From assembly GCA_965224085.1 (NCBI GenBank), contig CBDCYI010000011.1:256001-320000 (forward strand): DNA of 64,000 bases. Direction: 5' to 3'. The stretch is from Candidatus Marinacidobacterales bacterium (lineage in GTDB: Bacteria; Acidobacteriota; Vicinamibacteria; Marinacidobacterales; SMYC01). This document shows positions 28,728-40,088 of the stretch, piece after piece. Position 1 is the first letter of the stretch, and each line of letters opens with the position of its first letter. The position numbers and the translations under genes are program-made. The notes below the pieces were generated by a model. The model searched no databases. It had not been told where the DNA came from and saw only the letters and a list, made by a program, of their open reading frames with translations.

Positions 28728-30164
28728 ATGTTTTGGAAGAGGCGCTTGTTCATCGGTTTTGGCCTAGTTATTAGCATTGGCATTATCACTCTCACTTCCG
28801 CGACGACGCGCGCTCAATCCAGCCTTGCCGATGACTACCGAGAGGCCGCGGGCCGCGTGATCGGCGCCGCCATGACCGACGTCGAAGGCTGGGAGAAGCT
28901 CGAGCACCTTACGATCGATATCGGCCATCGATTGAGCGGATCCTCTGGGCTCGAGCGCGCCATCGATTGGGCTTTCGATCGCATGAAGCGCGAGGAGCTT
29001 CACGTGCAAAAACTTCCGGTGAAAGTGCCGCATTGGGTGCGGGGCGAGGAATCCGCGCGGCTCCTAGCACCTGTCGAGCGCGCACTACCGATCTTGGGAC
29101 TCGGCCTGAGCGTCGGAACGCCCGCGGCCGGCATCAATGCGCACGTCGTCGCGGTCACGAGCTTCGATGAGCTCGACGCACTCGGACGCGAGAAAGTCGA
29201 AGGGAAGATCGTCCTCTTTGCGGTCCCGTGGATGGGCTATGGACACACCGTGCGTTACCGCTCCGCGGGTGCCTCCCGAGCGGCGGCGCTCGGGGCGGTC
29301 GCGGCACTCGTGCGCTCGGCCACCGGCCGCAGCTTGAGCACACCGCATACCGGCGCGATGCGCTACGACGAAACGTTTCCAAAGATTCCTGCGGCTGCCG
29401 TAACCGTCGAAGATGCCGAATGGATGCGACTCGCGATCGATCACGGACAGGACGTGCGTGTGCATCTTTCGATGGGCGCTCAGATGCTTCCGGACGCGGA
29501 CTCGTTCAATCTCGTCGCCGAGATCCCAGGGCGCGAGCTGCCGGACGAGGTGGTCGTCATGGGCGGACATTTCGACTCGTGGGATGTCGGGCAGGGTGCT
29601 CACGATGACGGGGCGGCCTGCATGGCTGCATGGCATGCGCTGACACTCGTGCATCGTCTCGGCCTAAGGCCGCGACGGACGCTGCGCGTGGTGCTGTGGA
29701 CGAACGAGGAGAACGGTCTCCGCGGGGGGAGGGCTTATCGCGAGTGGGTGGGCGACCGAATCGACACTCATGTCGCCGCTATCGAGATGGATGGTGGGGC
29801 CGAGCGGCCGATCGGTTTCGGCGTCGGCTTGCGTATAGGCGAGGGCGACGGCTCGGATGCGGCCTACCAACGCGCGCTCGAGCTGCTGACGCCCATCGGG
29901 TCGCTACTCGACGGGATCGACGCTGGCATCATGCAACGCGGCGGCGGGGGCGCGGATATCGGACCTTTGATGAATGATGGTGTTCCCGGACTCGCCCTCC
30001 GCACCGTCGGTGAGCACTACTTCGATTGGCACCATACCCAGGCGGACACGCTCGACAAAGTGGACCTTCAGGATTTCCGGCGCGCCATCGCGATGCTAGG
30101 AGTCGTCGGCTATGTGCTCGCCGACATGCCGGGCACGCTGCCGCGTGGCTCGGGCAAAAAATAA
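28728..30164 (+). CDS. M28-family peptidase (carboxypeptidase Q-like)
   Basis: GGHFDSWD, GAHDDG, NEENG, EMDGG and YFDWHHT.AD motifs; signal peptide. Confidence 0.9.
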   Translation: MFWKRRLFIGFGLVISIGIITLTSATTRAQSSLADDYREAAGRVIGAAMTDVEGWEKLEHLTIDIGHRLSGSSGLERAIDWAFDRMKREELHVQKLPVKVPHWVRGEESARLLAPVERALPILGLGLSVGTPAAGINAHVVAVTSFDELDALGREKVEGKIVLFAVPWMGYGHTVRYRSAGASRAAALGAVAALVRSATGRSLSTPHTGAMRYDETFPKIPAAAVTVEDAEWMRLAIDHGQDVRVHLSMGAQMLPDADSFNLVAEIPGRELPDEVVVMGGHFDSWDVGQGAHDDGAACMAAWHALTLVHRLGLRPRRTLRVVLWTNEENGLRGGRAYREWVGDRIDTHVAAIEMDGGAERPIGFGVGLRIGEGDGSDAAYQRALELLTPIGSLLDGIDAGIMQRGGGGADIGPLMNDGVPGLALRTVGEHYFDWHHTQADTLDKVDLQDFRRAIAMLGVVGYVLADMPGTLPRGSGKK

Positions 30165-30667
30165 TTTTGACAGGATTAGTCATGATCGGTACGAGGCAGT
30201 TGATGGCGGTACCGTGTCGCAATCGAAGTTGGAACAGCTCAAGCCCCGAGCTCCATCTCTTCGAGCGAGCCCGCCACGAGCACCCGGTCCAAGTAAGCAT
30301 CCAGCTCTTCGAGCGATTCCAACGCTCGTACTCGGGCCGCGGTCTCCTGGGGAAGAGGACCAAACCTGGAATTGAGGAACCGTAGCAACGTATCGCGCTT
30401 TCCTTCGAGAAGGCCCTCTTCACGCCCCTTCTCCATCATTTTGTCAGCCCAGGTGAGTTCCATCTCTTGTGCCTCCCGATACTCGTCTTTCGATAGTAGC
30501 CCGCGAAAGCTTTCCTCCTGATGGGCAGCGAGCTCAAAATAGGTCTCGATGACGTTCACCAACAGGAACTTCGGCGCATCGTCCAAATCGCTCTTTCCAA
30601 CCCGCTGCATCATCGAGGCCTTGAGCAGAGGCTCGTCGACGTGGCGGCGGTCCATCAGAGCCGCTAG

Positions 30668-32669
30668 CCCATGTTTACCCTTTATGGGCACCCTAACGCT
30701 CGTAAGTGACTGAATTCAAAGGAACGGGGGTTGAATTTGCCCAAAACGTAGAGACAGATATTGTGCTTTTAGCGCCATTAATACGTTGTAATCGTGGACA
30801 ATGATATGTAGTATGCGTGAGGACAGGTTATGTTCTTCCGCATCGTTCGGGCCGCAGGCGGCAAAGGGGTTCAACATGAGTATGTCCGCCTGGTCGAGTC
30901 GTATCGGGAGCACGGCAAGCCGAAGCAACGCGTAGTGTGCAACTTGGGGCGCAAGGATCTCCTAGTTGCCAATCTCGACTCCCTCAATCGGTTGCTTGGG
31001 GCCGGTGAACCGGCCGACACCGAGCGAGCAGCCGAGCAGATCGCGGGGGCAGACGCGTGGGATTGGGGTCCGATGGTGGTGACGGCGACGCTGTGGCGCG
31101 AGCTCGGACTGGAGCAGATTCTCGACCGGCTCGGAGGCCGCGGCAAGCGCGACGGAGTGGCGCTAAGCGAGCGAGCTTTGGTGCTGGTCGCCAACCGGCT
31201 ATGTGCTCCGTCAAGCGAGCACGGTCTGGCGCGCTGGCTCGAGACCGACTTCGTCTGCGACCGGCAGGGGCGGCGGTGGGTGCCGCAGTGGCGCGATGAT
31301 GGGGAGCGGCGAGCGAGTCGCTCCCCGCGGGTTCGCGTGGAGTTTTGCCAACTCAAGCAATGGTACCGAACGCTCGACCAGCTGCATGCCCGCAAAGAAC
31401 AGATCGAGAAAGAGCTGTTTTTGCGCTTGCGGGATCTGTTTTCGCTTGAGGTTGACATGGTGTTTTACGACCTGACGTCGACGTACTTCGAAGGTCAAGG
31501 CCCTCCGGGGCTCGGCGCCCACGGCTACAGTCGCGACCGCAGACCGCGTAACCGGCAAGTGCTTGTCGGTCTGGTGATGGTGGACGGTTGGCCGATCGCC
31601 CACCATGTTTTCGCCGGCAACTGGCGTGACGCGAAAACGGTGCCGCAGGTGCTCAACGATCTCAACGAACGATTCGGTTTGCACCGCGTGGTTTTTGTCG
31701 GCGACCGAGGGATGGTAACGAGCGACAGCCTGGCGGTGGTGCGCTCGCGCAAGCAGGGCTATCTCGTCGGGCTGCAAAGACGACGGCGCGAGGAGGTCTA
31801 TCGTTACATCGAGCGCGCCAGCGGAGAGTGGATCGACTGCCCTGGTGGCATCACGGTGAGCGAAAAAGCCGAGCCACCTAAGACTCGTGTGCAAGAAGTC
31901 CGCTCCGAGCAGTCTGGCGTGCGCATCTTCGTCGTTCACAGCGACGAAAGGCTCGCCTACGAGCGCGGGCAGAGGCTGCGGGCCATGGGACGTGCCCGTG
32001 CGGCATTCGAGGCCCTTGAGCGCCGCGTGCGCGAGGGACGATTGAAAGCCCCCGAGAAAATCGGTGCCGCCGCCGCGCGCATACAGGCACGCCACCACGG
32101 TCACCGTTACTACGACTGGGAGTACAAAAACGCTCGCTTCCGCTTCTTCGAGCACCCGGTCAACCTCAAGCGCGAGCAAGCCTACGAGGGTAAGTACGTT
32201 ATTCAAACCGAGGAGCAAAACCTCTCTCCGGTCGACGCCGTGCGCCTTTACAAGGACCTAAACGAGGTCGAGCGAGCCTTCTCATGCCTTAAGGATGTCA
32301 TTGAGATGCATCCCGTTTACCACCAGACCGATGAGCGTGTGGAGGCACATCTTTTCGTAGCTACGCTGGCCTTCCTTGTGCATCGGGCTCTTGAGAAAAA
32401 GCTCAAGGTCGCCGAACTCGACCTGTCCGCAACCGAGGCACTACAAGCGCTACGCTCGGTCCGGCTCGTCGACTTACAGCTGGGTTCTGGGCGGACCAAG
32501 CGCGTCGTCACGCGCGGCACCGCTCGCGCCAACTCGATCCTGACTGCACTCGGAATCGTTGAACGCGACCCGCCAGCCTTCTCCGAGGAGGTGCTGTCAG
32601 CGTAGAGACAAACCGCGGATCTCAGTCCTTTGTTTATGATGACTTAGAGACCTAAAAGGGAAACATGGG
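30668..32669 (+). mobile_element. Complete IS1634-family element (2002 bp)
   Basis: IRs CCCATGTTTACCCTTTA and TAAAAGGGAAACATGGG; CTAG duplication at 30664-30667 and 32670-32673. Confidence 0.93.
30830..32605 (+). CDS. IS1634-family transposase
   Basis: YVRLVESYR, FYDLTSTYFEG, GDRGM and YKDL.EVERAF..LK motifs. Confidence 0.93.
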   Translation: MFFRIVRAAGGKGVQHEYVRLVESYREHGKPKQRVVCNLGRKDLLVANLDSLNRLLGAGEPADTERAAEQIAGADAWDWGPMVVTATLWRELGLEQILDRLGGRGKRDGVALSERALVLVANRLCAPSSEHGLARWLETDFVCDRQGRRWVPQWRDDGERRASRSPRVRVEFCQLKQWYRTLDQLHARKEQIEKELFLRLRDLFSLEVDMVFYDLTSTYFEGQGPPGLGAHGYSRDRRPRNRQVLVGLVMVDGWPIAHHVFAGNWRDAKTVPQVLNDLNERFGLHRVVFVGDRGMVTSDSLAVVRSRKQGYLVGLQRRRREEVYRYIERASGEWIDCPGGITVSEKAEPPKTRVQEVRSEQSGVRIFVVHSDERLAYERGQRLRAMGRARAAFEALERRVREGRLKAPEKIGAAAARIQARHHGHRYYDWEYKNARFRFFEHPVNLKREQAYEGKYVIQTEEQNLSPVDAVRLYKDLNEVERAFSCLKDVIEMHPVYHQTDERVEAHLFVATLAFLVHRALEKKLKVAELDLSATEALQALRSVRLVDLQLGSGRTKRVVTRGTARANSILTALGIVERDPPAFSEEVLSA

Positions 32670-33354
32670 CTAGGGCTGTGTAGAGCACATTGCTCTTCTC
32701 AACATACTCTTCTGCCTTCAGCGGTGCCAGTCTCAAGCTCTCGTAGCGAAACCTCAGCCGCTCACGCCCCATGAGCGTGATTTGGAACTCCTCCTCTGTC
32801 AGAGCCTGTCCTCCTCCGCGTAGAAACGGCACGATGGGAAGAATCGGTATTTGATGACGCAGCCAGAGCAAAGCGTGGTAGTTGTACATCCTTCGTTCGA
32901 AATCCTGCTCTTGGGCCGCTTGGACTTCGACATGAACGAGAATGAGCTCGGCGTCTCCTTCGAGGGTTTTGATCTCAGCGACGACGTCGGCTTCCCGCCG
33001 TCTGCCCTCTGGAAGGTCCATGAAGAGCTCTTTGTCCAAGAAACGAAGCGTGTCGAAGTCGAGGCGCTTCTCTGCGTCCGGATAGAACATCTGCAAAAAC
33101 TCACGAAATAGGCCTTTCAGAAGATCCTTGAATAGTTGGTCGTGACCCATCTGAGCTGTCTCCCTGTGCACAACAGACGACAAACTCAGGGACAAACCTC
33201 CTTTCCTCCTCCGATTTTCTTCCGGCGACCGGGTGTTAGAATTGCCGACGACGTGATCGGCCAAACGCTTGCCCACTGCAAGATCCTGGAGAAGATTGGC
33301 CAGTGCGGAATGGACTCCCCACGCCGGATCAAGAGAAAACGTTCTTCGTAATAG

Positions 33355-34623
33355 TCATCCGCGATTCGCTTTTTTTGTGGGCCACCGGGAGGGGTCGTAA
33401 AGGGTTCCTTGTCGAAGCATCGCAATGGCGATGGGGAGAATGCGGTCCATGACGCCTCTGAGAGCTCTGGCATGGCTGTGGCCTCTGTCACGAAGCCGGT
33501 CGTAGTGTTCTTTGAAGTGGGGGTCGTGCAAAACGGCAGTGCGTGCCCAATGGTGGAGAGCATTATTGAGGGGCAAAGAGCGAGCTCTCCTCATCAGGAT
33601 CGTTGGTCGCAACTGACCGCGCTTGCCGCTCTTTTTTGTGACAGGAGCAATGCCGCCGAGAGTCCTGAAGGCGTTGAGATTACGGAGCCGAATGGGGTCG
33701 TGGGCATAGCAGAGCACGGAGGCGAGCACGTAAGCACCGACGCCGGGCAAAGAGGCAAGAATGGCAGGGTCGGAGCAATGCTCGTCGGTTAGTGCTTGCA
33801 CGCGCTTGAACCACTTCTCGAGATGCTGGTCGGAGGCACGACGATGTTGTCGAACGAGGAGCAACTGCTGGAGTAGTAGTTGGAGATGCTCGGCGGTAGC
33901 TTGAGTGGTTGCGGTTGCGACCCGGAGAGGTTTTTGTTTGAGGGTATCGAGGATCTTCTCGGGTTTTAGACGTCGGATGCGGTGTTTTTGAGCGAGGGTC
34001 TCAATGGAGTGGCGGCTAAGAGGGTTGGGGCTGGATTCGAAGAAGAGTTTTAGGAGCTCGCAGAAAAAAGCGTCGAGAGCCTTGTCCTTTGGCGCGAGCG
34101 AGACGAGGTGAGGCCAGCAACGAGTAAGGAGTTCTCGGATCTGCGAGCTGAGGGCCACATGGTTTTTGACGAGTTGGTCGCGGGTACTCAGCAACCCGCG
34201 CATAGCGAGGATCTCCGTAGGTGGGAGATGCAAGCGCTGAAAGCGGTGGCCGTCGGTTCTGAGCGAATCGGCGAGAACGAAGGCGTCTCGCCGATCATCC
34301 TTGGCGCCGCTCATAGAATGCCGGTCGCGGAAACGGTCGACCTGCTTGGGATTGATGGAGAAAATGGCGATGCCGTGGTCAAGAAAGAGCTCGACGACGG
34401 CCCCATGAGGTTTTTCGATCGCCACCGCGATGCGCTCGGTATCTTGCGAGGTCTCTTCCAAAAGCCAGTCGATGGTTCCCGATAGTCCTTCGCGGCTATG
34501 GGGGAAGCCTCTCTCCGCCAAGAAGTTACCTTTGGCATCGACCACACTGGCCAAGTGAAGCCATTGACCCAGGTCGATACCGACGAAGAAGTCGTATTTG
34601 AGTTGATTCATGGAAGAACTCAT
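33355..34623 (-). CDS. IS110-family DEDD recombinase/transposase
   Basis: FVGIDLG (D), AIEKP (E), KDDRRDA (D,D), LPGVG and APVTKKSGK (Ser). Start at 34623 or 34611, not 34686. Confidence 0.93.
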   Translation of the reverse strand: MSSSMNQLKYDFFVGIDLGQWLHLASVVDAKGNFLAERGFPHSREGLSGTIDWLLEETSQDTERIAVAIEKPHGAVVELFLDHGIAIFSINPKQVDRFRDRHSMSGAKDDRRDAFVLADSLRTDGHRFQRLHLPPTEILAMRGLLSTRDQLVKNHVALSSQIRELLTRCWPHLVSLAPKDKALDAFFCELLKLFFESSPNPLSRHSIETLAQKHRIRRLKPEKILDTLKQKPLRVATATTQATAEHLQLLLQQLLLVRQHRRASDQHLEKWFKRVQALTDEHCSDPAILASLPGVGAYVLASVLCYAHDPIRLRNLNAFRTLGGIAPVTKKSGKRGQLRPTILMRRARSLPLNNALHHWARTAVLHDPHFKEHYDRLRDRGHSHARALRGVMDRILPIAIAMLRQGTLYDPSRWPTKKANRG

Positions 34624-34635
34624 TTCCGCCAGCGC

Positions 34636-34772
34636 ATGTGATGTTTCATCGGCCCCTGTACTGGCGCTCGAAGCGCAACTCCCCACTGGATGTCCATCAC
34701 AAAAGAATTGCCGGCACGCATGTCCATTCCTGGCGCTAGGAGCGCAGGGCGACGTATGGCGTTGCCGGCAAG
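34636..34772 (-). ncRNA. Predicted IS110 bridge RNA (target-binding loop, then donor-binding loop)
   Basis: Two stem/internal-loop domains, each with a UGCGCU-nnn-AGCGCCAG hairpin. Guides ACGUCGCCC/GGAAUGG match the target flanks; GUGGGGAGU/GUACAGG match the element ends. RNA ends are approximate. Confidence 0.88.
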
Positions 34773-34818
34773 CTGCTGACGAAATCGAAAATAGTCCAAG
34801 CTCATCGTGATATTTGCT

Positions 34819-35235
34819 CTACCATGGCAATCGGAGTTGTCGCGCGATGCCACGAGTTCGTGCTCGGTTTTTTCTCGGTAGTTTCGGGCGAAGCACGTCC
34901 GAGAGTTTTTCTCGAATGTAAAGAACATAAGGCGGGTCTAGATATTGACTTTGCACTTCCTGGAGCACAGGTGAAAAATAACGAAGGGAGCGAATGGGCT
35001 GCAGTGGCTCCTCATGTTCTTGTAGCTCCCTACGAGCGCAACCCAGAAGTAGGGCACACTCGAATTCGTGTAACGGGACTCCTTGGCGGTAGAGCTGCGT
35101 CGCGATGAAGCGGTCGTCGCGCCGTGGCCGCTCAGGTGTGTTCGGAATGGAAAGATAGAGGTCCAAAATCGTCCGGACGTAATTGTTTTCTGTCAGAGCA
35201 TCGCTCGTGAGCGGTTCATTACCCAGCTTCGACAT
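34819..35235 (-). CDS. IS110 cargo ORF-B, hypothetical 138-aa protein
   Basis: ATG overlaps the ORF-A end; GGAGG..AAGG RBS; YVRTILDLY...IRSLRYF...Y. Confidence 0.8.
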   Translation of the reverse strand: MSKLGNEPLTSDALTENNYVRTILDLYLSIPNTPERPRRDDRFIATQLYRQGVPLHEFECALLLGCARRELQEHEEPLQPIRSLRYFSPVLQEVQSQYLDPPYVLYIREKLSDVLRPKLPRKNRARTRGIARQLRLPW

Positions 35236-35632
35236 CCTTTAGCCTCCCGCGTCGGCCGCAGATACAGCATTTGGCATATCTGATACTGTCAATCTTCGTT
35301 TTCATTGAATGAGCCATCGGGCCACTAGCTTGAATTTCACGAACTCCTAGACTGCCAGAATTACTGGGGTGAATGAACCCTTGCTCCGTCACTATTTTCG
35401 CCGCCTGGCGTAGACGATAATTCTGTTGCCGAGCCGCGTGGAGTTTTCGTGAGTTGAAACCTTTCTGGTAATTTCGGTTATTTTCGCGCTGGTTCTCTCG
35501 CCGGGTTTCGTCACGGCAGGTTGGACCGCAGTAGCACTGTCCCTGGTAACATGACTTGCAGATGAAGAAAGGCATCCCACAGCTTTTGTTGCGGCAGAAA
35601 AGCCGGAGAAGAACGACAGGTTTGGTGGCCAT
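35219..35632 (-). CDS. IS110 cargo ORF-A, Cys-rich Zn-finger-like basic protein
   Basis: CRNKSC..F.ICKSC.QGQ.YCGPTC, a basic helix (RQQNYRLRQ) and C-terminal CCICG; start 35632 (or 35729). Confidence 0.8.
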   Translation of the reverse strand: MATKPVVLLRLFCRNKSCGMPFFICKSCYQGQCYCGPTCRDETRRENQRENNRNYQKGFNSRKLHAARQQNYRLRQAAKIVTEQGFIHPSNSGSLGVREIQASGPMAHSMKTKIDSIRYAKCCICGRRGRLKDVEAG

Positions 35633-36098
35633 TCGGAACTCAGCAAAGTGCTGGACGATGGCCGCCCGGATGTGAGAGGCTAGCTTCAACTTGTAGTGGA
35701 GCGCCTCCTCCGGGGGCCATCCAAACATCAGAGCCCCGGTCGTTTGTAGCGGCTGGGGCTCACTATTGTCGCACAGCAGGTTCACCCTCTTCTTGCCGGC
35801 GCGAGACGATCTGACTGACTCGCGCCAAAGGCGCGAGAGGATGCTGGCCTCGCGCCAGAGGCGCGGGATGAGGCCTTGTACACAGACATTTCCTACCGAC
35901 TCTTCCCGCAACACACGCTTTCGCTGCACTGATGCTTCGGCAAGCGTACAGGGTGACGTTTATCTGGCCCAGGACACGAAGCTCGGTCGCAGGGTTGCGC
36001 TCAAGGTTCTCCCTCCCGCGCTGGCGGAAAGCGAAGCGCGCCGGGCTCGCTTCAAACGTGAGGCCAAAGCCCTCGCAGCCCTGAATCATCCGAACATC

Positions 36099-36245
36099 AC
36101 GACACCGTCTCGAGCGCTATCAAAGCGTGCGGGAGCTTGAAGGTCGACGCGGGCGCGGTCCTCACCGCGCATTCGTCGGGATCGCTGACGTAAGGCGTCG
36201 GATCGTCCAACGGCCACACCATCACGATGGGCCTGTCGCGGATTA
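36099..36245 (-). pseudogene. Class D beta-lactamase/transpeptidase-like fragment
   Basis: Manual translation ...[19 protein letters not shown] (SxxK at 36136-36147), abutting the kinase remnant. Confidence 0.6.
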
Positions 36246-36259
36246 GCGGCGCGACCTAC

Positions 36260-36907
36260 TCAGTCCGCGGCGGCGCCGGTGCCGATGGCGCCCAGCGACA
36301 CGAGCCAGATCGAGAAGGGGATCGCTCCTAGCGGAAAGAGGAACGACCACCCCGAGTCTCGGGTGAGGACCGCGATCGGTGGGGCCGCGCCGTACACGAG
36401 ACCGCCGAGAATGCCCACGACGGCCAGGGGACGCGCCAACATCACCCAACGCCATCCGACGCGCCCAGCAACGACGGCAGAGGACCAACATAGCACCGGA
36501 TAGGCCACGACGGAGAGCATCAGGTGCGTGTCGAGAATGGGCGTCGCGCCGCCTGCCGAGAGAGCGGCCACATCCATATCCGCGATCAGATGGAAGAACG
36601 CTTCGACGGACCAGAGCGCGCTCCCTACGACGGCCCACGTCATCGCCCGTCCGGCCCGTCGGCGAAACGCGTCGTCGCGTCTGGCGAGGACGAAGGCGAT
36701 CACGAGGAATACGGCTCCCGCGAGCGTTAGCCAATGGGAGAGCGGCCAAGACGGATCCGAAAGCATTGCCACGAAGTGCGCATCGAAGCCGGCAGTTGGA
36801 TCACCTGGCGGGTGGTTCATGCCGCCCGCCACGAACAGCACCCCCGCCACGACCATCGCAGCCCGCCACGACCACGATTGGCCCGCCTTGGTGCTCGATG
36901 CAGACAT
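36260..36907 (-). CDS. Hypothetical membrane protein
   Basis: 215-aa ORF with about 6 hydrophobic segments and a GG..HP motif. Confidence 0.75.
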   Translation of the reverse strand: MSASSTKAGQSWSWRAAMVVAGVLFVAGGMNHPPGDPTAGFDAHFVAMLSDPSWPLSHWLTLAGAVFLVIAFVLARRDDAFRRRAGRAMTWAVVGSALWSVEAFFHLIADMDVAALSAGGATPILDTHLMLSVVAYPVLCWSSAVVAGRVGWRWVMLARPLAVVGILGGLVYGAAPPIAVLTRDSGWSFLFPLGAIPFSIWLVSLGAIGTGAAAD

Positions 36908-37269
36908 GGTGCGAGGAATCTACCAGATCCTCCTTCTGATGGCCAATGCGTCGTGGAATTGAGGAATAGGAACTTTGACTCCAAGCACCTCGTGTACTGG
37001 CACGAACTGGAGTGCTCGGGAGTACGGAACAGCGGGATGGATGGGGAGAGTCCGTCCTAGGGCCAGCACCCCGGTGTTGTTTTGTGCCGAGGCGGTTCCT
37101 AGGGGGCGCCGGGCGCAGACGGGTATCGCGCTGGGACGGGTGCGGTGTTGTCAGGTCGCTGGTTGTGGCGGAGGAGCTCGGCGTAGATGGGCTATAGCTC
37201 AGCCCTCGCCGATACCGGTTCAGGCGCACCGTGGGGTACGGCGAGGACTTACATTCTGGGTGTCTGGGT

Positions 37270-37663
37270 CATCCCCGTCGAAGGTGTTGACGCTAGACAT
37301 TTGGCGACGCCAGGGTCTTTGCCAGATTGGTCGCCGGATGGGCGATTCATCTCCTTTCCTTTGAGGGTCCCCGCCGCGTCCCGGCAGATGGGGGAATCCT
37401 GAGCAGTTAGCGGAGGCGGAAGCGGTCGAGGGCGTACGATGGTCGAAGGATGGCCGCGGATCAATTTCTGCAGAAGCACCGATAGCGGAAGAAATTTCTG
37501 GGAGGTGTCGGCCGAAGGCGGGGCGGAACGAGCTCTAACCGAGCTCGAGGGCAAGCGAGGCATCGCGAATAGGTGGGCCCTGTCAACGGACGGACACTAT
37601 CTCTACTTTGTGTGGCAGGAGGAGTTCGGAGACATCTGGGTCATGGACGTCACCCAAGATTAG
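37270..37663 (+). pseudogene. TolB/PD40 propeller C-terminal remnant
   Basis: PDWSPDGRFISF and STDGHYLYFVW...DIWVMDV* in broken frames. Confidence 0.55.
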
Positions 37664-37696
37664 CGAACGCCACTCTCGCTCGCTTCTATTGACTAC

Positions 37697-37724
37697 CTAT
37701 AGGAGTTGTCGTGTACTCCTATAG
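37697..37724. promoter_or_regulatory. Inverted repeat, likely PadR operator
   Basis: CTATAGGAG-N10-CTCCTATAG just upstream of the padR start. Confidence 0.6.
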
Positions 37725-37740
37725 TCTAGCTGTAGAAGTC

Positions 37741-38357
37741 ATGATGAGAGCATCGAAGACCGACGTCCCGCCTGGAACGCTCGAGCTCCTGATTCTGAAG
37801 ACTCTGTCTCTCGAGCCCATGCACGGGCTCGGCGTGTCGAAACGGCTCGAGCAGATCACCCGCGGCACGTTTCAAGTGAACCCTGGGTCGTTTTTTCCCG
37901 CGCTTCATCGTATGGAGCAAGAAGGGTTCCTGGAAGGTGAGTGGGGTCGCTTGTAGCCCCCGAAAGATTTAGTCTCGGCTTGCTCGGTACATTCGGGATG
38001 ACGGGGTTTCTCCTGGCGCTCGTCGGTGTATACGGCGTCTTGTCCCACGTGGTAAGCCTGAGGCGACAGGAGTTCGGTCTTCGTATTGCCCTTGGTGCAC
38101 GAACGGTGGAGATCGCACGCATGGTGCTCGCGCGGGGAACGCGAGTCGTCGCCTCCGGGGTCGCGATCGGTCTCGTCGCTGCCATCGGTCTCGCCCGCCT
38201 CATCGAGAGCCTGCTCTACGCGGTCAGCCCGACGGGTCCCGCGACCTATGCGATCGTGGCGGCGCTCGTTCTCGCGGTCAGTCTCCTAGCGTGTGCCGTT
38301 CCCGCCTACCGGGCTGCGCAGATCGACCCAATGAAGACGTTGCGCTTGGAGCAGTGA
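37741..38357 (+). pseudogene. Truncated PadR fused to the C-terminus of an ADOP/FtsX-type ABC permease
   Basis: GTLELLILKTL...HG.G...GS..PALHR.E..G...EWG, then ...GVYGVLS..V..RRQEFGLRIALGA...PAYRAAQIDPM..LR. Confidence 0.85.
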
Positions 38358-38526
38358 CGGCGAGACACACGACGAGCGCCACCCGCGCTGACGATGAGAT
38401 GTTACTGCTTGTCGTGAACTCGTCTCGCATGGGGTGTGCGGATACACCGGATAGCGAGCCGTTGAGGTCTCGAGTTCAGATGACGTCGATGCGCACCTTG
38501 CGTTCGCGCTCATTTGATTCGGCCGG

Positions 38527-39873
38527 CTAGATTGCCTTCGCGACGCTCACGATGGCTTCGAGGCTCTTTTCGACGTCCTCTTCGGTCGTTGCCCAGGACG
38601 AGACGCTGATGCGCATCGCGCCTCGGCCTCTCCAGTTGGTGCCGCTGCACCAGCACGTGCCCTCCTCCTGCACCGCGGCGATGACGCGCTCGGTCTGCTC
38701 GTCGCTTCCAAAGGAGACGAGCACTTGATTGAGCACGACGTCGTTGAGGATCACGTAGCCCGCGCCGTGGAGGCCGGCCGCGAAACGGCGCGCGAAGCGG
38801 CAGTGGCGTTCGATGAGCTCTCGCAAGCCCGAGCGGCCCAGAGATAAAAGCGCCGCCCAGATCTCTACGCCGCGGGCACGCCGCGAGGACTCGGGCGTGT
38901 AGTCGCAAGGCTGGCGCTCTTCGCCTTTCGGCAAATAGGCCGCTGTAATCGAGAGCGCTTGGCGCGCGGCCTCCGGGTCACGATAAAGCGCGAGCCCGTT
39001 GTCATAGGGTACGTTGAGCCACTTGTGAAGATCCGTAGCGATGGAATCGACGTCGGCGATACCCTCTGTGAGCTGGCGCGTCTCGGGCGAGGCCGCTGCC
39101 CACAGACCGAAGGCACCGTCGAGATGAATCCACGCCCCCGCGTCTCGTGCGCGTGCAGCAATCTCCGCTACGGGGTCGAAGCTTCCTGTGTTGACGTTCC
39201 CAGCTTGCAGGCAGACGATGCTTGGCGCACGTAACGTTGGAAGCTTGTCCGCCCGCACCCGTCCTTGTCGGTCGACGGGTACTTTGATGACGCGCTCTCG
39301 GCCGAAGCCGACGAGTGCGAGCGCTTGCAATAGAGTCGTATGGGCTTCGGCCCCCACGATGACTTGAACTTCAGGAGCACCGAAGAGTCCCTGCGCCTCG
39401 ACGTCCCATCCGACCTTTTCTAAAACCGCGTGCCGTCCTGCGGCCAAGCCGGAAAAGTTGCCCATGGTCGTCCCCGTGACGAAGCCGCCGCCCCAGCTCT
39501 TCGGTAGATCCAGAATCTCGCGAACCCATGAGAGCGCGGTGTTCTCGATCGCGGCGGCGACGGGTGAGCCGATGACAAAATGCGCGTTTTGATCCCACGC
39601 ACCCGCGAGCCAATTCGCGGCCAAACTCGCGGGGAGTGCTCCGCCAGTCACGAATCCAAAATATCGAGGTCCCGCATTCGCAATCGTGGCGGGCGATCCC
39701 CATTCGTCGAGTCGTTGCAACACTTCCTTGGGTGCGGTGGGTGCTTCCGGTAGCGCGCCTAAAAAAGCTCCCAACCTTGCGATCGCATCGGGTCTCGGCT
39801 CGACCGGGCGATCGGAAAGGCCGTTCAAATAGTTGACCGAGCGCGTGAGCGCATCAGAAAGGAGATCCTTCAC
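38527..39873 (-). CDS. PLP-dependent group II decarboxylase
   Basis: PRYFGFV, IHLDGAFGL and ATDLHKWLNVPY motifs. Confidence 0.9.
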   Translation of the reverse strand: MKDLLSDALTRSVNYLNGLSDRPVEPRPDAIARLGAFLGALPEAPTAPKEVLQRLDEWGSPATIANAGPRYFGFVTGGALPASLAANWLAGAWDQNAHFVIGSPVAAAIENTALSWVREILDLPKSWGGGFVTGTTMGNFSGLAAGRHAVLEKVGWDVEAQGLFGAPEVQVIVGAEAHTTLLQALALVGFGRERVIKVPVDRQGRVRADKLPTLRAPSIVCLQAGNVNTGSFDPVAEIAARARDAGAWIHLDGAFGLWAAASPETRQLTEGIADVDSIATDLHKWLNVPYDNGLALYRDPEAARQALSITAAYLPKGEERQPCDYTPESSRRARGVEIWAALLSLGRSGLRELIERHCRFARRFAAGLHGAGYVILNDVVLNQVLVSFGSDEQTERVIAAVQEEGTCWCSGTNWRGRGAMRISVSSWATTEEDVEKSLEAIVSVAKAI

Positions 39874-39888
39874 TCTTCGATTCTAAAC

Positions 39889-39912
39889 AAAAAAAGGGGG
39901 CCCAGGGCCCCC
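39889..39912 (-). terminator. Intrinsic terminator for the minus-strand sORF
   Basis: GGGGGCCC-T-GGGCCCCC followed by T7 on the minus strand. Confidence 0.75.
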
Positions 39913-39938
39913 TGTGTCCGGAGAGAAACGAAGGAAAA

Positions 39939-40088
39939 TTAATTGGCGCCTTTATCGGCGTTGGCCTTCTGATTCTTGTTTCTCTCGCGAGTTTTGGCGC
40001 GTGTTTGCGCGGCGAGGCGCCGAAAATAGCGCTGCCTCTCGGCCCAACCGCCGCGCCTTCTTCTGGCGAACATATTGTGTGCGTACAT
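39939..40088 (-). CDS. Unannotated 49-aa basic small protein
   Basis: MYAHNMFARRRRGGWAERQRYFRRLAAQTRAKTRERNKNQKANADKGAN*; AAAGGT RBS; own promoter and terminator. Confidence 0.6.
   Translation of the reverse strand: MYAHNMFARRRRGGWAERQRYFRRLAAQTRAKTRERNKNQKANADKGAN

Follow-up and report, generated by a model that had tools for sequence, protein, structure and literature searches.

The window analysed here is a stretch of 64,000 nucleotides from a Candidatus Marinacidobacterales bacterium of the phylum Acidobacteriota (assembly GCA_965224085.1, contig CBDCYI010000011.1, positions 256,001 to 320,000 of the forward strand), and the feature under study is an insertion sequence (IS) of the IS110 family lodged in a broken gene for a Hanks-type Ser/Thr kinase. 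It is very probably an IS110-type element guided by a bridge RNA, belonging to a clade specialised for the codons GGN-ATG-GGN-GAN-GT (G-M-G-D/E-V) of the glycine-rich loops (Gly-loops) of such kinases.

An earlier note on this DNA had given the interval 33253-36098, which comprises both the kinase fragment and the element. The element proper occupies 33314-35950 on the minus strand (2,637 bp), its edges having been set by aligning the flanks of genome copies. To find these, 33200-36150 was compared by BLASTN with the 12 contigs (6.87 Mb) of the host genome, and about a dozen full or partial copies were returned. The kinase flanks were considered as a part of the element and rejected because they differ among the copies.

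The 5' fragment of the kinase gene (33253..33313, plus strand) opens with a GTG start at 33253, encodes VIGQTLAHCKILEKIGQCGM together with the first G of the next Gly codon, and ends in GGAATGG. Its last two bases (33312..33313) form the left copy of a 2-nt core that reads GG in the kinase sense and CC in the recombinase sense. A second GG, the right core copy, lies at 35951..35952, after which the 3' fragment of the kinase (35953..36098, plus strand) supplies bases 2-3 of the Gly codon, runs on to ...ALNHPNI and is kinase-like to 36098. The core was found at both junctions of every full copy, with no long duplication of the target.

Between the two core copies, and antisense to the kinase fragment, the element carries three intact open reading frames (ORFs), all on the minus strand. 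In the recombinase sense it begins with the left end (LE) tip region (35633..35950), which starts TGTACGCTTGCC, followed by an accessory Cys-rich ORF (35219..35632, about 137 aa from the Met at 35632, with the open frame continuing to 35929), a second accessory ORF of 138 aa (34819..35235), the bridge RNA core (34638..34771), the recombinase gene (33355..34623, 422 aa from the Met at 34623, within a frame open to 34686), and the right end (RE) of 41 nt (33314..33354), which ends ...GTGGGGAGT and contains a -35-like TTGATC at 33327-33332. The tips TGTACGCTTGCC and ...GGCGTGGGGAGT, judged by eye and with no repeat search run, do not form an inverted repeat.

The recombinase is a DEDD/Ser recombinase, i.e. 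an IS110 transposase. Its N-terminal domain matches PF01548 (E = 3.1e-31, residues 35-192, profile positions 1-155 of 155) and its C-terminal domain PF02371 (E = 1.2e-11), while the NF033542 model, "IS110 family RNA-guided transposase", scores 162.6 bits against a cut-off of 140. A phmmer search revealed distant similarity to the solved recombinases of IS621 (E = 2.2e-7) and ISCro4 (E = 1.9e-6), and the Ser-Gly of the catalytic loop aligns, query "kkSGk" with "yeSGs" of IS621, in which the roles of residues S241 and G242 have been described (PMC11208158). All the features of IS110 and bridge-RNA membership that could be tested were found in the element.

The Bridge RNA and Its Guides

The stretch of approximately 200 nt that separates the 138-aa ORF from the start of the recombinase folds into a pair of internal loops closed by stems, so arranged that an outer stem with the target-binding loop precedes an outer stem with the donor-binding loop. 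Read on the recombinase strand, the target loop bears ACGUCGC and the core CC on its 5' side (left target guide, 34747..34755) and GGAAU, the core GG and then AC on its 3' side (right target guide, 34722..34730), with a small hairpin between them; on the plus strand the two sides appear as "gggcgacgt" and "gtccattcc", respectively. The earlier note had stated that the guides specify GGA ATG GGC GAC GT (G-M-G-D-V), and this was borne out once both sides of the loop were located, since together they read GGAAT-GG-GCGACGT in the kinase sense. Inspection of the 5' side of the loop against the window flank disclosed no pairing beyond these 14 nt.

In the donor loop, GUGGGGAGU (left donor guide, 34678..34686) and GUACAGG-GG (right donor guide, 34653..34661) flank a second hairpin. 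The former is identical to the last nine bases of the RE and the latter is complementary to the LE tip, CC-TGTAC; among the related loci described below, the donor guide covaries with the left end, GUAUAGG occurring with CCTATAC in four loci and GUACAGG with CCTGTAC in 29. The AC that follows the right target guide can pair with the final two bases (GT) of the RE, in the manner of the two handshake bases that follow the right guides of the known system, in which the core is also repeated in all four guides (PMC11208158, PMC11208160). In IS621 the left guides are in the top-strand sense and the right guides are complementary to the top strand (PMC11208160, PMC11208158), and the RNA of the present element has the same layout.

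The proposed four-helix structure was examined over 34 distinct sequences, in which its 29 pairs are 98.3% paired and seven show compensatory changes, a level matched by none of 500 shuffles (0/500). Both outer stems and the first hairpin were independently recovered by RNAalifold. The predicted two-loop RNA is a canonical IS110-type bridge RNA. When the 151-nt RNA was searched through the phylum (401 genomes, best two candidates in each), matches were obtained in three other genomes; these are short (35-51 nt), cover the donor-loop region and have little bearing on rarity.

The Occupied Site and the Interrupted Kinase

The occupied site is composed of GGAATGG (33307-33313) and GTGACGT (35953-35959), i.e. 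GGA ATG GGT GAC GT, and differs from the guide by a single C/T mismatch at the third position of a Gly codon; as the earlier note had claimed, this sole mismatch is synonymous. The same note held that removal of the element restores the kinase frame and that excision could return an intact kinase. Scripted joining of the flanks (33253-33313 with 35953 onward, which deletes the element and one GG core) confirmed that the frame is rejoined, and the second proposition failed for this copy: the rejoined ORF stops 62 codons past the junction, at 36140, the kinase-like part ends at 36098, and the second Gly of GxGxxG is replaced by Cys. The kinase gene in the window is a remnant that excision would not revive. 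Its fragment, being too short, is absent from the list of Pfam matches; Pkinase matches begin at profile position 13, right at the junctions of two other copies (C5b and C4a, on contigs C5 and C4). Kinase similarity of the window frame is lost after ...LNHPNI, 49 codons past the insertion point, and BLASTN against the genome detected no repeat boundary at that position, 36098.

Copies and Target Sites in the Host Genome

The host genome has 61 Pkinase matches. Thirteen copies or remnants of the element were counted in it, eight of which lie in the Gly-loop codons of kinase genes. Copies of subfamily A, which share the guide of the window, are 98-100% identical (most above 99.6%) and interrupt kinase loops in the window, at C4:1682510 (PVGKGGM/GEVYKAKDTRLDRTVAIK, the slash marking the junction) and at C9:115777 (LGSGGM/GDVYRAK). 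Others lie outside kinases, namely at C11:626411 (in a gene for a PD40 and amidohydrolase protein), C5:803837, C5:333081 and C5:1945125, besides a fragment abutting an RNB ribonuclease gene. Subfamily B, whose copies are 85-91% identical to A, carries the guide GGT ATG GGC GAA GT (G-M-G-E-V), which differs from guide A twice, each time at the third position of a codon, and all three of its copies reside in kinases (C5:1762838, KLGAGGM/GVVYRAKDTRLNRIV; C11:764571; C4:1482112). A decayed third subtype at C9:~747900-748790, 74-77% identical and represented by its left part only with a 1-nt deletion at the tip, abuts a frameshifted kinase (GEVYRAR...). The eighth kinase is one at C11:655213 that bears only a scar of the element, described in the last section.

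With the core fixed, the genome offers no perfect empty site for guide A, three with one mismatch and 70 with two, and four of these 73 are real kinase loops; among the occupied sites within two mismatches of guide A, three of four are kinases (Fisher P = 0.0018), a test that rests on small numbers. As the sequence match alone leaves the kinase enrichment unexplained, either a further layer of recognition or the purging of other insertions is proposed to account for the excess.

Three subfamily A copies (the window, C4a and C5a) retain all three ORFs intact and are 100% identical in spite of unlike flanks, which points to recent transposition. In public sequencing data, the stretch or a part of it was present in 20 of 24 runs, from nine studies, in the form of assembled contigs, and four runs were examined. 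Contigs of three studies bridge both junctions of the window copy, and in contigs of three studies the depth of the element is about ten times that of the flanks. A contig of run X10 that joins 33312 to 35953 was considered as an empty site and rejected: it has an extra A for the core G, only 25 nt on its shorter side and a depth of 5.7, and most likely derives from another kinase gene or organism.

Relatives in Genomes and Metagenomes

A scan of species-representative genomes yielded 60 loci and a scan of metagenomes a further 80. Close relatives in the genome scan were limited to L017, from a Candidatus Marinacidobacterales metagenome-assembled genome (MAG; 90% identity), and L001, from an uncultured Acidobacteria MAG (62%), each with one copy in its genome; the metagenome loci L061-L100 have recombinases of 60-94% identity, and the remaining metagenome loci do not exceed 44%. 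The clade was accordingly defined as the 42 loci with a recombinase of at least 60% identity, and the 98 more distant IS110 loci served as the outgroup. A bridge RNA was found in all 42 clade loci, and the element ends of each relative were placed from the donor guides of that locus before its flanks were translated.

All 38 clade loci with any recoverable flank turned out to sit in a kinase Gly-loop, xGxGGM/GxVY, with the recombinase antisense to the kinase in every case. The RE-side flank reads G-x-G-[GA]-M in 31/31, and the LE-side flank G-x-V-[YFWH] in 31/33, the two misses being a contig that breaks off two codons from the element and a kinase whose frame is interrupted by a stop codon. 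In total, 37 distinct kinase insertion sites are represented, and identical elements occur in different kinases (L065/L066/L067 and L073/L075/L076). A tblastn search with four kinase domains detected a kinase in 27/42 clade loci and in 0/98 outgroup loci, and the matches in L001 and L017 start at the G after GGM. The outgroup RNAs that could be aligned (L004, L127 and L132) have other guides, and the flanks of L004 and L127 are non-kinase. The suggestion of the earlier note that a conserved kinase motif serves as a recurring landing pad is therefore upheld by 8/13 copies in the host genome and 38/38 related loci with a flank; the other insertions of the element and its relatives, on whose enrichment in kinases that suggestion had been made to hinge, proved to be strongly enriched in subdomain I.

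Evolution of the Target Guide

Over the 42 guides, target positions 1, 2, 4-8, 13 and 14 (out of 14) are invariant, and 41 guides vary only at positions 3, 9 and 12, where three or four bases are used at each. At these positions the two Gly codons and the Asp/Glu codon have their third base; in the Met codon, which is not degenerate, the third base is invariant. The exception is L100, with the guide GGC ATG GGT ACC GT (G-M-G-T-V, with Thr) and the site ...GSGGM/GTVYAAEDTKLSR (GGM/GTVY), in which a swap of a whole codon in the guide (ACC) is mirrored by its site.

At 31 sites the left 7 nt could be compared with the guide, with 0-1 mismatches, and at 33 sites the right 7 nt, with 0-3; the mismatches are found only at positions 3 (12/31), 9 (18/33), 12 (17/33) and 11 (3/33, at sites with a Val codon). 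The two agree more often than expected from shuffled pairings at position 3 (19/31 vs 9.7, P = 0.0004) and at position 12 (16/33 vs 11.0, P = 0.019). In a recombinase tree of 39 rows, from which L017 (truncated recombinase) and L096, L098, L099 and L100 (recombinase ORF on the contig shorter than 380 aa) were left out, kinase targeting is present on both sides of the deepest split, and the wobble states differ between near-identical recombinases (L061 vs L062, L080 vs L081). From this the association is old and the guide is frequently retuned, although only within the freedom that the protein code leaves.

Accessory Proteins

The Cys-rich ORF is present in 38/42 clade loci and the 138-aa ORF in 35/42, and each is found in 0/98 outgroup loci. 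In the Cys-rich protein, about 135 aa form a conserved core that includes eight invariant Cys, and the AlphaFold model of the protein (mean predicted local distance difference test score, pLDDT, 71.7) displays a small beta ribbon, predicted to be a zinc ribbon, two long helices and a C-terminal CxxC. The 138-aa protein, recognisable in the clade down to 35% identity, is predicted to form a five-helix bundle (mean pLDDT 79.9, predicted template modelling score, pTM, 0.69). It is lacking in the elements with a short LE of about 615 nt (L001, L085, L089, L090, L094 and L095), which are nevertheless in kinases.

Scans of both ORFs against Pfam, NCBIfam and PHROGs gave nothing above noise, and Foldseek against the PDB returned no match at E ≤ 0.001 for either model. 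With VIA-align (wide), the 138-aa protein reached a best Z of 6.1, against AAA+ lid and DnaD-like helical bundles, and the Cys-rich protein one of 5.4, over its long helices only. Both values fall short of what the tool treats as meaningful for helical proteins, for which reason no function was drawn from them. The accessory proteins are regarded as part of the element, and a role in regulation or in the control of directionality is a guess.

A homologous-protein search with the Cys-rich ORF retrieved 14 close relatives only. Among 1.84 billion cluster representatives, a profile of the Cys-rich protein matched 3,593 with the threshold set at E ≤ 0.001 and 2,205 with the stricter E ≤ 1e-10; of ten longer hits scanned against Pfam, three extend into Mu-transposase C-terminal/IstB, IS110 transposase or tyrosine-recombinase (phage-integrase) domains. 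The protein is therefore widespread, unannotated and associated with mobile elements, and its family occurs beside other recombinases as well as fused to them. The host genome also encodes a Cys-rich paralogue of 131 aa (C11:499720-500115) beside a ribbon-helix-helix (RHH) antitoxin/PIN toxin pair and a PD40 protein, with no IS110 recombinase among the ORFs scanned near it.

Proposed Mechanism

By analogy with IS621, the element would leave as a circle in which the RE and LE are joined across the core. Most relatives share a conserved TTGAC[AC] box in the right end, 14 nt from its tip, where the window copy has TTGATC. In the circle form this box would precede the left-tip sequence T[GA]TAC[GT]CT by 16-18 nt; the circle junction may thus bring the box and the LE tip together as a promoter, as IS110 circles are reported to rebuild a promoter across the end junction (PMC11208160). 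The RNA would then bridge the circle junction to a kinase site and the recombinase would exchange strands at the core, again as in IS621. The sequences of the junctions place the centre of recombination at the GG shared between the Met and Gly codons. Sites of the GGAATGGGCGACGT type are the predicted insertion targets for the recombinase, the RNA and the RE-LE junction acting together.

The target would be held fixed by selection on the kinase protein, which has dozens of paralogues per genome, so that a landing site would always be available, and the loss of one paralogue is probably cheap. The guide would be free to drift or be retuned only at the degenerate positions of the codons.

Several observations weigh against a clade of kinase-directed, RNA-guided elements. 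Five of the 13 copies in the host genome lie outside kinases, and the site in the PD40/amidohydrolase gene differs from the guide at 5/12 non-core positions, which indicates that the targeting is leaky. A kinase Gly-loop at C5:176698 (minus strand) that matches guide B at 14/14 positions is unoccupied, and three sites with a single mismatch to guide A are empty as well. At position 9, guide and site agree no more often than expected by chance (15/33 vs 12.5, P = 0.22). As to the route by which the RNA is produced, it lies about 1.18 kb from the LE tip with two ORFs between, and a promoter scan found no sigma-70-like site inside the linear element. A scan of 30000-40000 against Rfam 15 gave no match at E ≤ 1, the presence of a bridge RNA model in Rfam being uncertain; no circle junction was seen in the contigs of the four runs, an assembled form that could show neither a circle nor the RNA ends; and the metagenome contigs are short, with a possible bias to single-copy insertions.

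Alternative Explanations

A more far-reaching version of the same idea, thought rather improbable, would make the clade an obligate "kinome parasite", its guide locked to the protein motif and its synonymous retuning following the paralogues of new hosts, with accessory proteins that adapt the bridge system to coding sequence (e.g. through expression of the distant RNA or the direction of recombination) and with precise excision rendering kinases switchable. If true, the clade would provide the first case in nature of RNA guidance directed at the signature of a protein family and not at a DNA repeat, and it would drive the turnover of kinomes in Acidobacteriota.

The choice of site could instead be made by a protein, for instance the Cys-rich accessory protein or the recombinase, with the RNA complementarity incidental. 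The restriction of both accessory proteins to the clade (38 and 35 of 42 loci vs 0/98 in the outgroup) would suit such a scheme, as would occupied sites that are richer in kinases than the sequence match predicts and the second layer of target recognition, besides base pairing, reported in a preprint on ISPpu10. It is very unlikely, given that guide and site covary, above chance at positions 3 and 12 and by a whole codon in L100, that the loop architecture and the covariation of donor guide and end are traits of bridge RNAs, and that the short-LE members continue to land in kinases without the 138-aa ORF. An auxiliary contribution of a protein to the choice of site may exist alongside the RNA guidance favoured here.

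It has also to be asked whether the element serves its host as a reversible on/off switch for kinases by way of precise excision. IS110 excision is described as scarless (PMC11208160), the window kinase frame is rejoined in silico, and the kinase domain downstream of copy C5b is open for 245 codons. Most of the interrupted kinases have decayed, however: the window gene stops 62 codons past the junction, the C4a kinase is frameshifted into two Pkinase pieces, the C9a kinase is truncated, the kinase at the C9:748k remnant is frameshifted and that of L093 has an in-frame stop, while one kinase bears an 8-nt scar of imprecise loss. Contigs of three studies, moreover, bridge both junctions of the window copy; published work reports that the elements insert more efficiently than they excise (PMC13626964) and that the donor site may stay intact after excision (10.64898/2026.08.31.748434). 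A host-serving switch is accordingly held to be highly improbable.

That one ancient kinase insertion was multiplied with its host gene by duplication or segmental copying, so that shared ancestry and no targeting explains the pattern, is scarcely credible, for although kinases form a large paralogous family here (61 Pkinase matches) and L061/L062 as well as L063/L065/L067 have flanks in common, the 100% identical elements of the window, C4a and C5a have unrelated flanks, the identical L065/L066/L067 and L073/L075/L076 stand beside different N-terminal kinase sequences, the clade occupies 37 distinct sites among 40 loci, and divergence is far greater in the flanks than in the elements, where co-duplication would lead one to expect the reverse.

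Comparison with Known Systems and Significance

The element, read as a kinase-directed bridge-RNA system, resembles IS621 of E. coli in its two-domain recombinase and in a bridge RNA upstream of the recombinase with the target loop before the donor loop, and likewise in the left target guide of 7+2 nt, the 2-nt core at both junctions and the 2-nt handshake-like extensions (PMC11208160, PMC11208158). It departs from IS621 in having the core CC instead of CT, and a right target guide of 5+2 nt and a 14-nt target where IS621 has a four-base right target guide and 11 target positions (PMC11208160). A protein-coding motif is targeted here and a repetitive extragenic palindromic (REP) element by IS621; two conserved ORFs, within about 1.18 kb, separate the RNA from the LE tip here, in an element of 2.6 kb against one of about 1.5 kb.

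Cargo-bearing expanded IS110 loci described by Hu et al. (10.64898/2026.08.14.744561) similarly exceed 2 kb and hold extra genes, but their cargo is variable and mostly plasmid-derived, in contrast to the two conserved small ORFs at fixed positions here. ISPpu9 and ISPpu10 of Pseudomonas putida, as REP-targeting IS110 members, share the RNA-guided insertion into a short multi-copy repeat. Their repeats are intergenic palindromes, kept for the genome's own reasons, whereas the repeat exploited here exists only through the motif of a protein family, and the guide varies with codon periodicity.

The IS1111-attC group consists of members of the IS110 superfamily with a specialised landing site. 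IS4321 and IS5075, of the IS1111 branch, also depend on a specialised and constrained landing site, in their case the terminal repeats of Tn21, and in that branch, unlike here, the RNA lies in the RE (PMC11208160). The targets of both groups are sites of other mobile elements, in contrast to the protein-coding motifs of the host targeted here.

Homing endonuclease genes, inteins and group I/II introns that reside in catalytic motifs follow the same logic, the target being one that the host cannot change, since an essential protein motif is encoded there. They splice out, leaving a working host gene, and recognise their site by protein; the present element, by contrast, breaks the gene, would rely on the redundancy of paralogues and would find its site by RNA-DNA pairing.

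In the literature consulted, including PMC11208160, bridge-RNA elements are said to have as their natural targets either REP-type repeats or the termini of other mobile elements. No report of kinase targeting by IS110 elements was found in the literature, where supplementary lists of natural targets might hold cases, and the word "kinase" occurs 0 times in PMC11208160, in the main text of 10.64898/2026.08.14.744561 and in 10.64898/2026.10.21.760802. What sets the element apart from IS621 and the REP-targeting members is the class of target, the 14-nt target with a 5+2-nt right guide, the CC core and the three-gene layout, and it furnishes a clean case from nature of an RNA guide directed at the signature of a protein family.

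The strategy indicated is that of a guide aimed at a sequence which dozens of paralogues must keep, as it encodes the ATP-binding loop of the kinase. The three-base periodicity of guide variation can be taken as a direct readout of the constraint that the target protein imposes, and the tolerance of mismatches only at positions 3, 9, 11 and 12 as a tolerance map for a bridge system with a 14-nt target. Eight kinase genes in this genome bear the element or its scar, which suggests that the large sets of kinases in Acidobacteriota are pruned by elements of this kind. The IS110 layout defined here comprises three genes, two of which encode uncharacterised proteins peculiar to the clade. Its bridge recombinase, a natural one that works with a CC core and an extended right target guide, may be of use as a tool.

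Neighbouring Genes and Minor Observations

Upstream of the kinase fragment, a gene for an IS1634/IS4-like DDE transposase of 591 aa (PF01609) lies at 30830-32674, with the end of that element near 32674. Its terminal ~75 nt recur about 28 times over contigs C4, C5, C9 and C11, from which it follows that the genome is heavily loaded with a second IS. Between this element and the kinase, an ORF on the minus strand (32644-33276) gave a weak match to the YhgA-like "Transposase_31" family (E = 3.3e-5, 24 bits vs a cut-off of 21), and its 5' part overlaps the start codon of the kinase.

Two further structures were noted on contig C11. Copy C11c ends 290 nt before the left tip, cut by an inverted 39-nt right-end piece of another copy (C11:766918-766956), which suggests nested or recombined copies. 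At C11:~655180-655500, a frameshifted kinase reads ...ILEPIGK-CGTACAGG-GTGAGGTCTAT, and at C11:655213 eight left-tip bases of the element stand in for the GGNGGNATGG codons, a scar consistent with imprecise loss, in which an element was deleted through recombination of two GGCAAG microhomologies.

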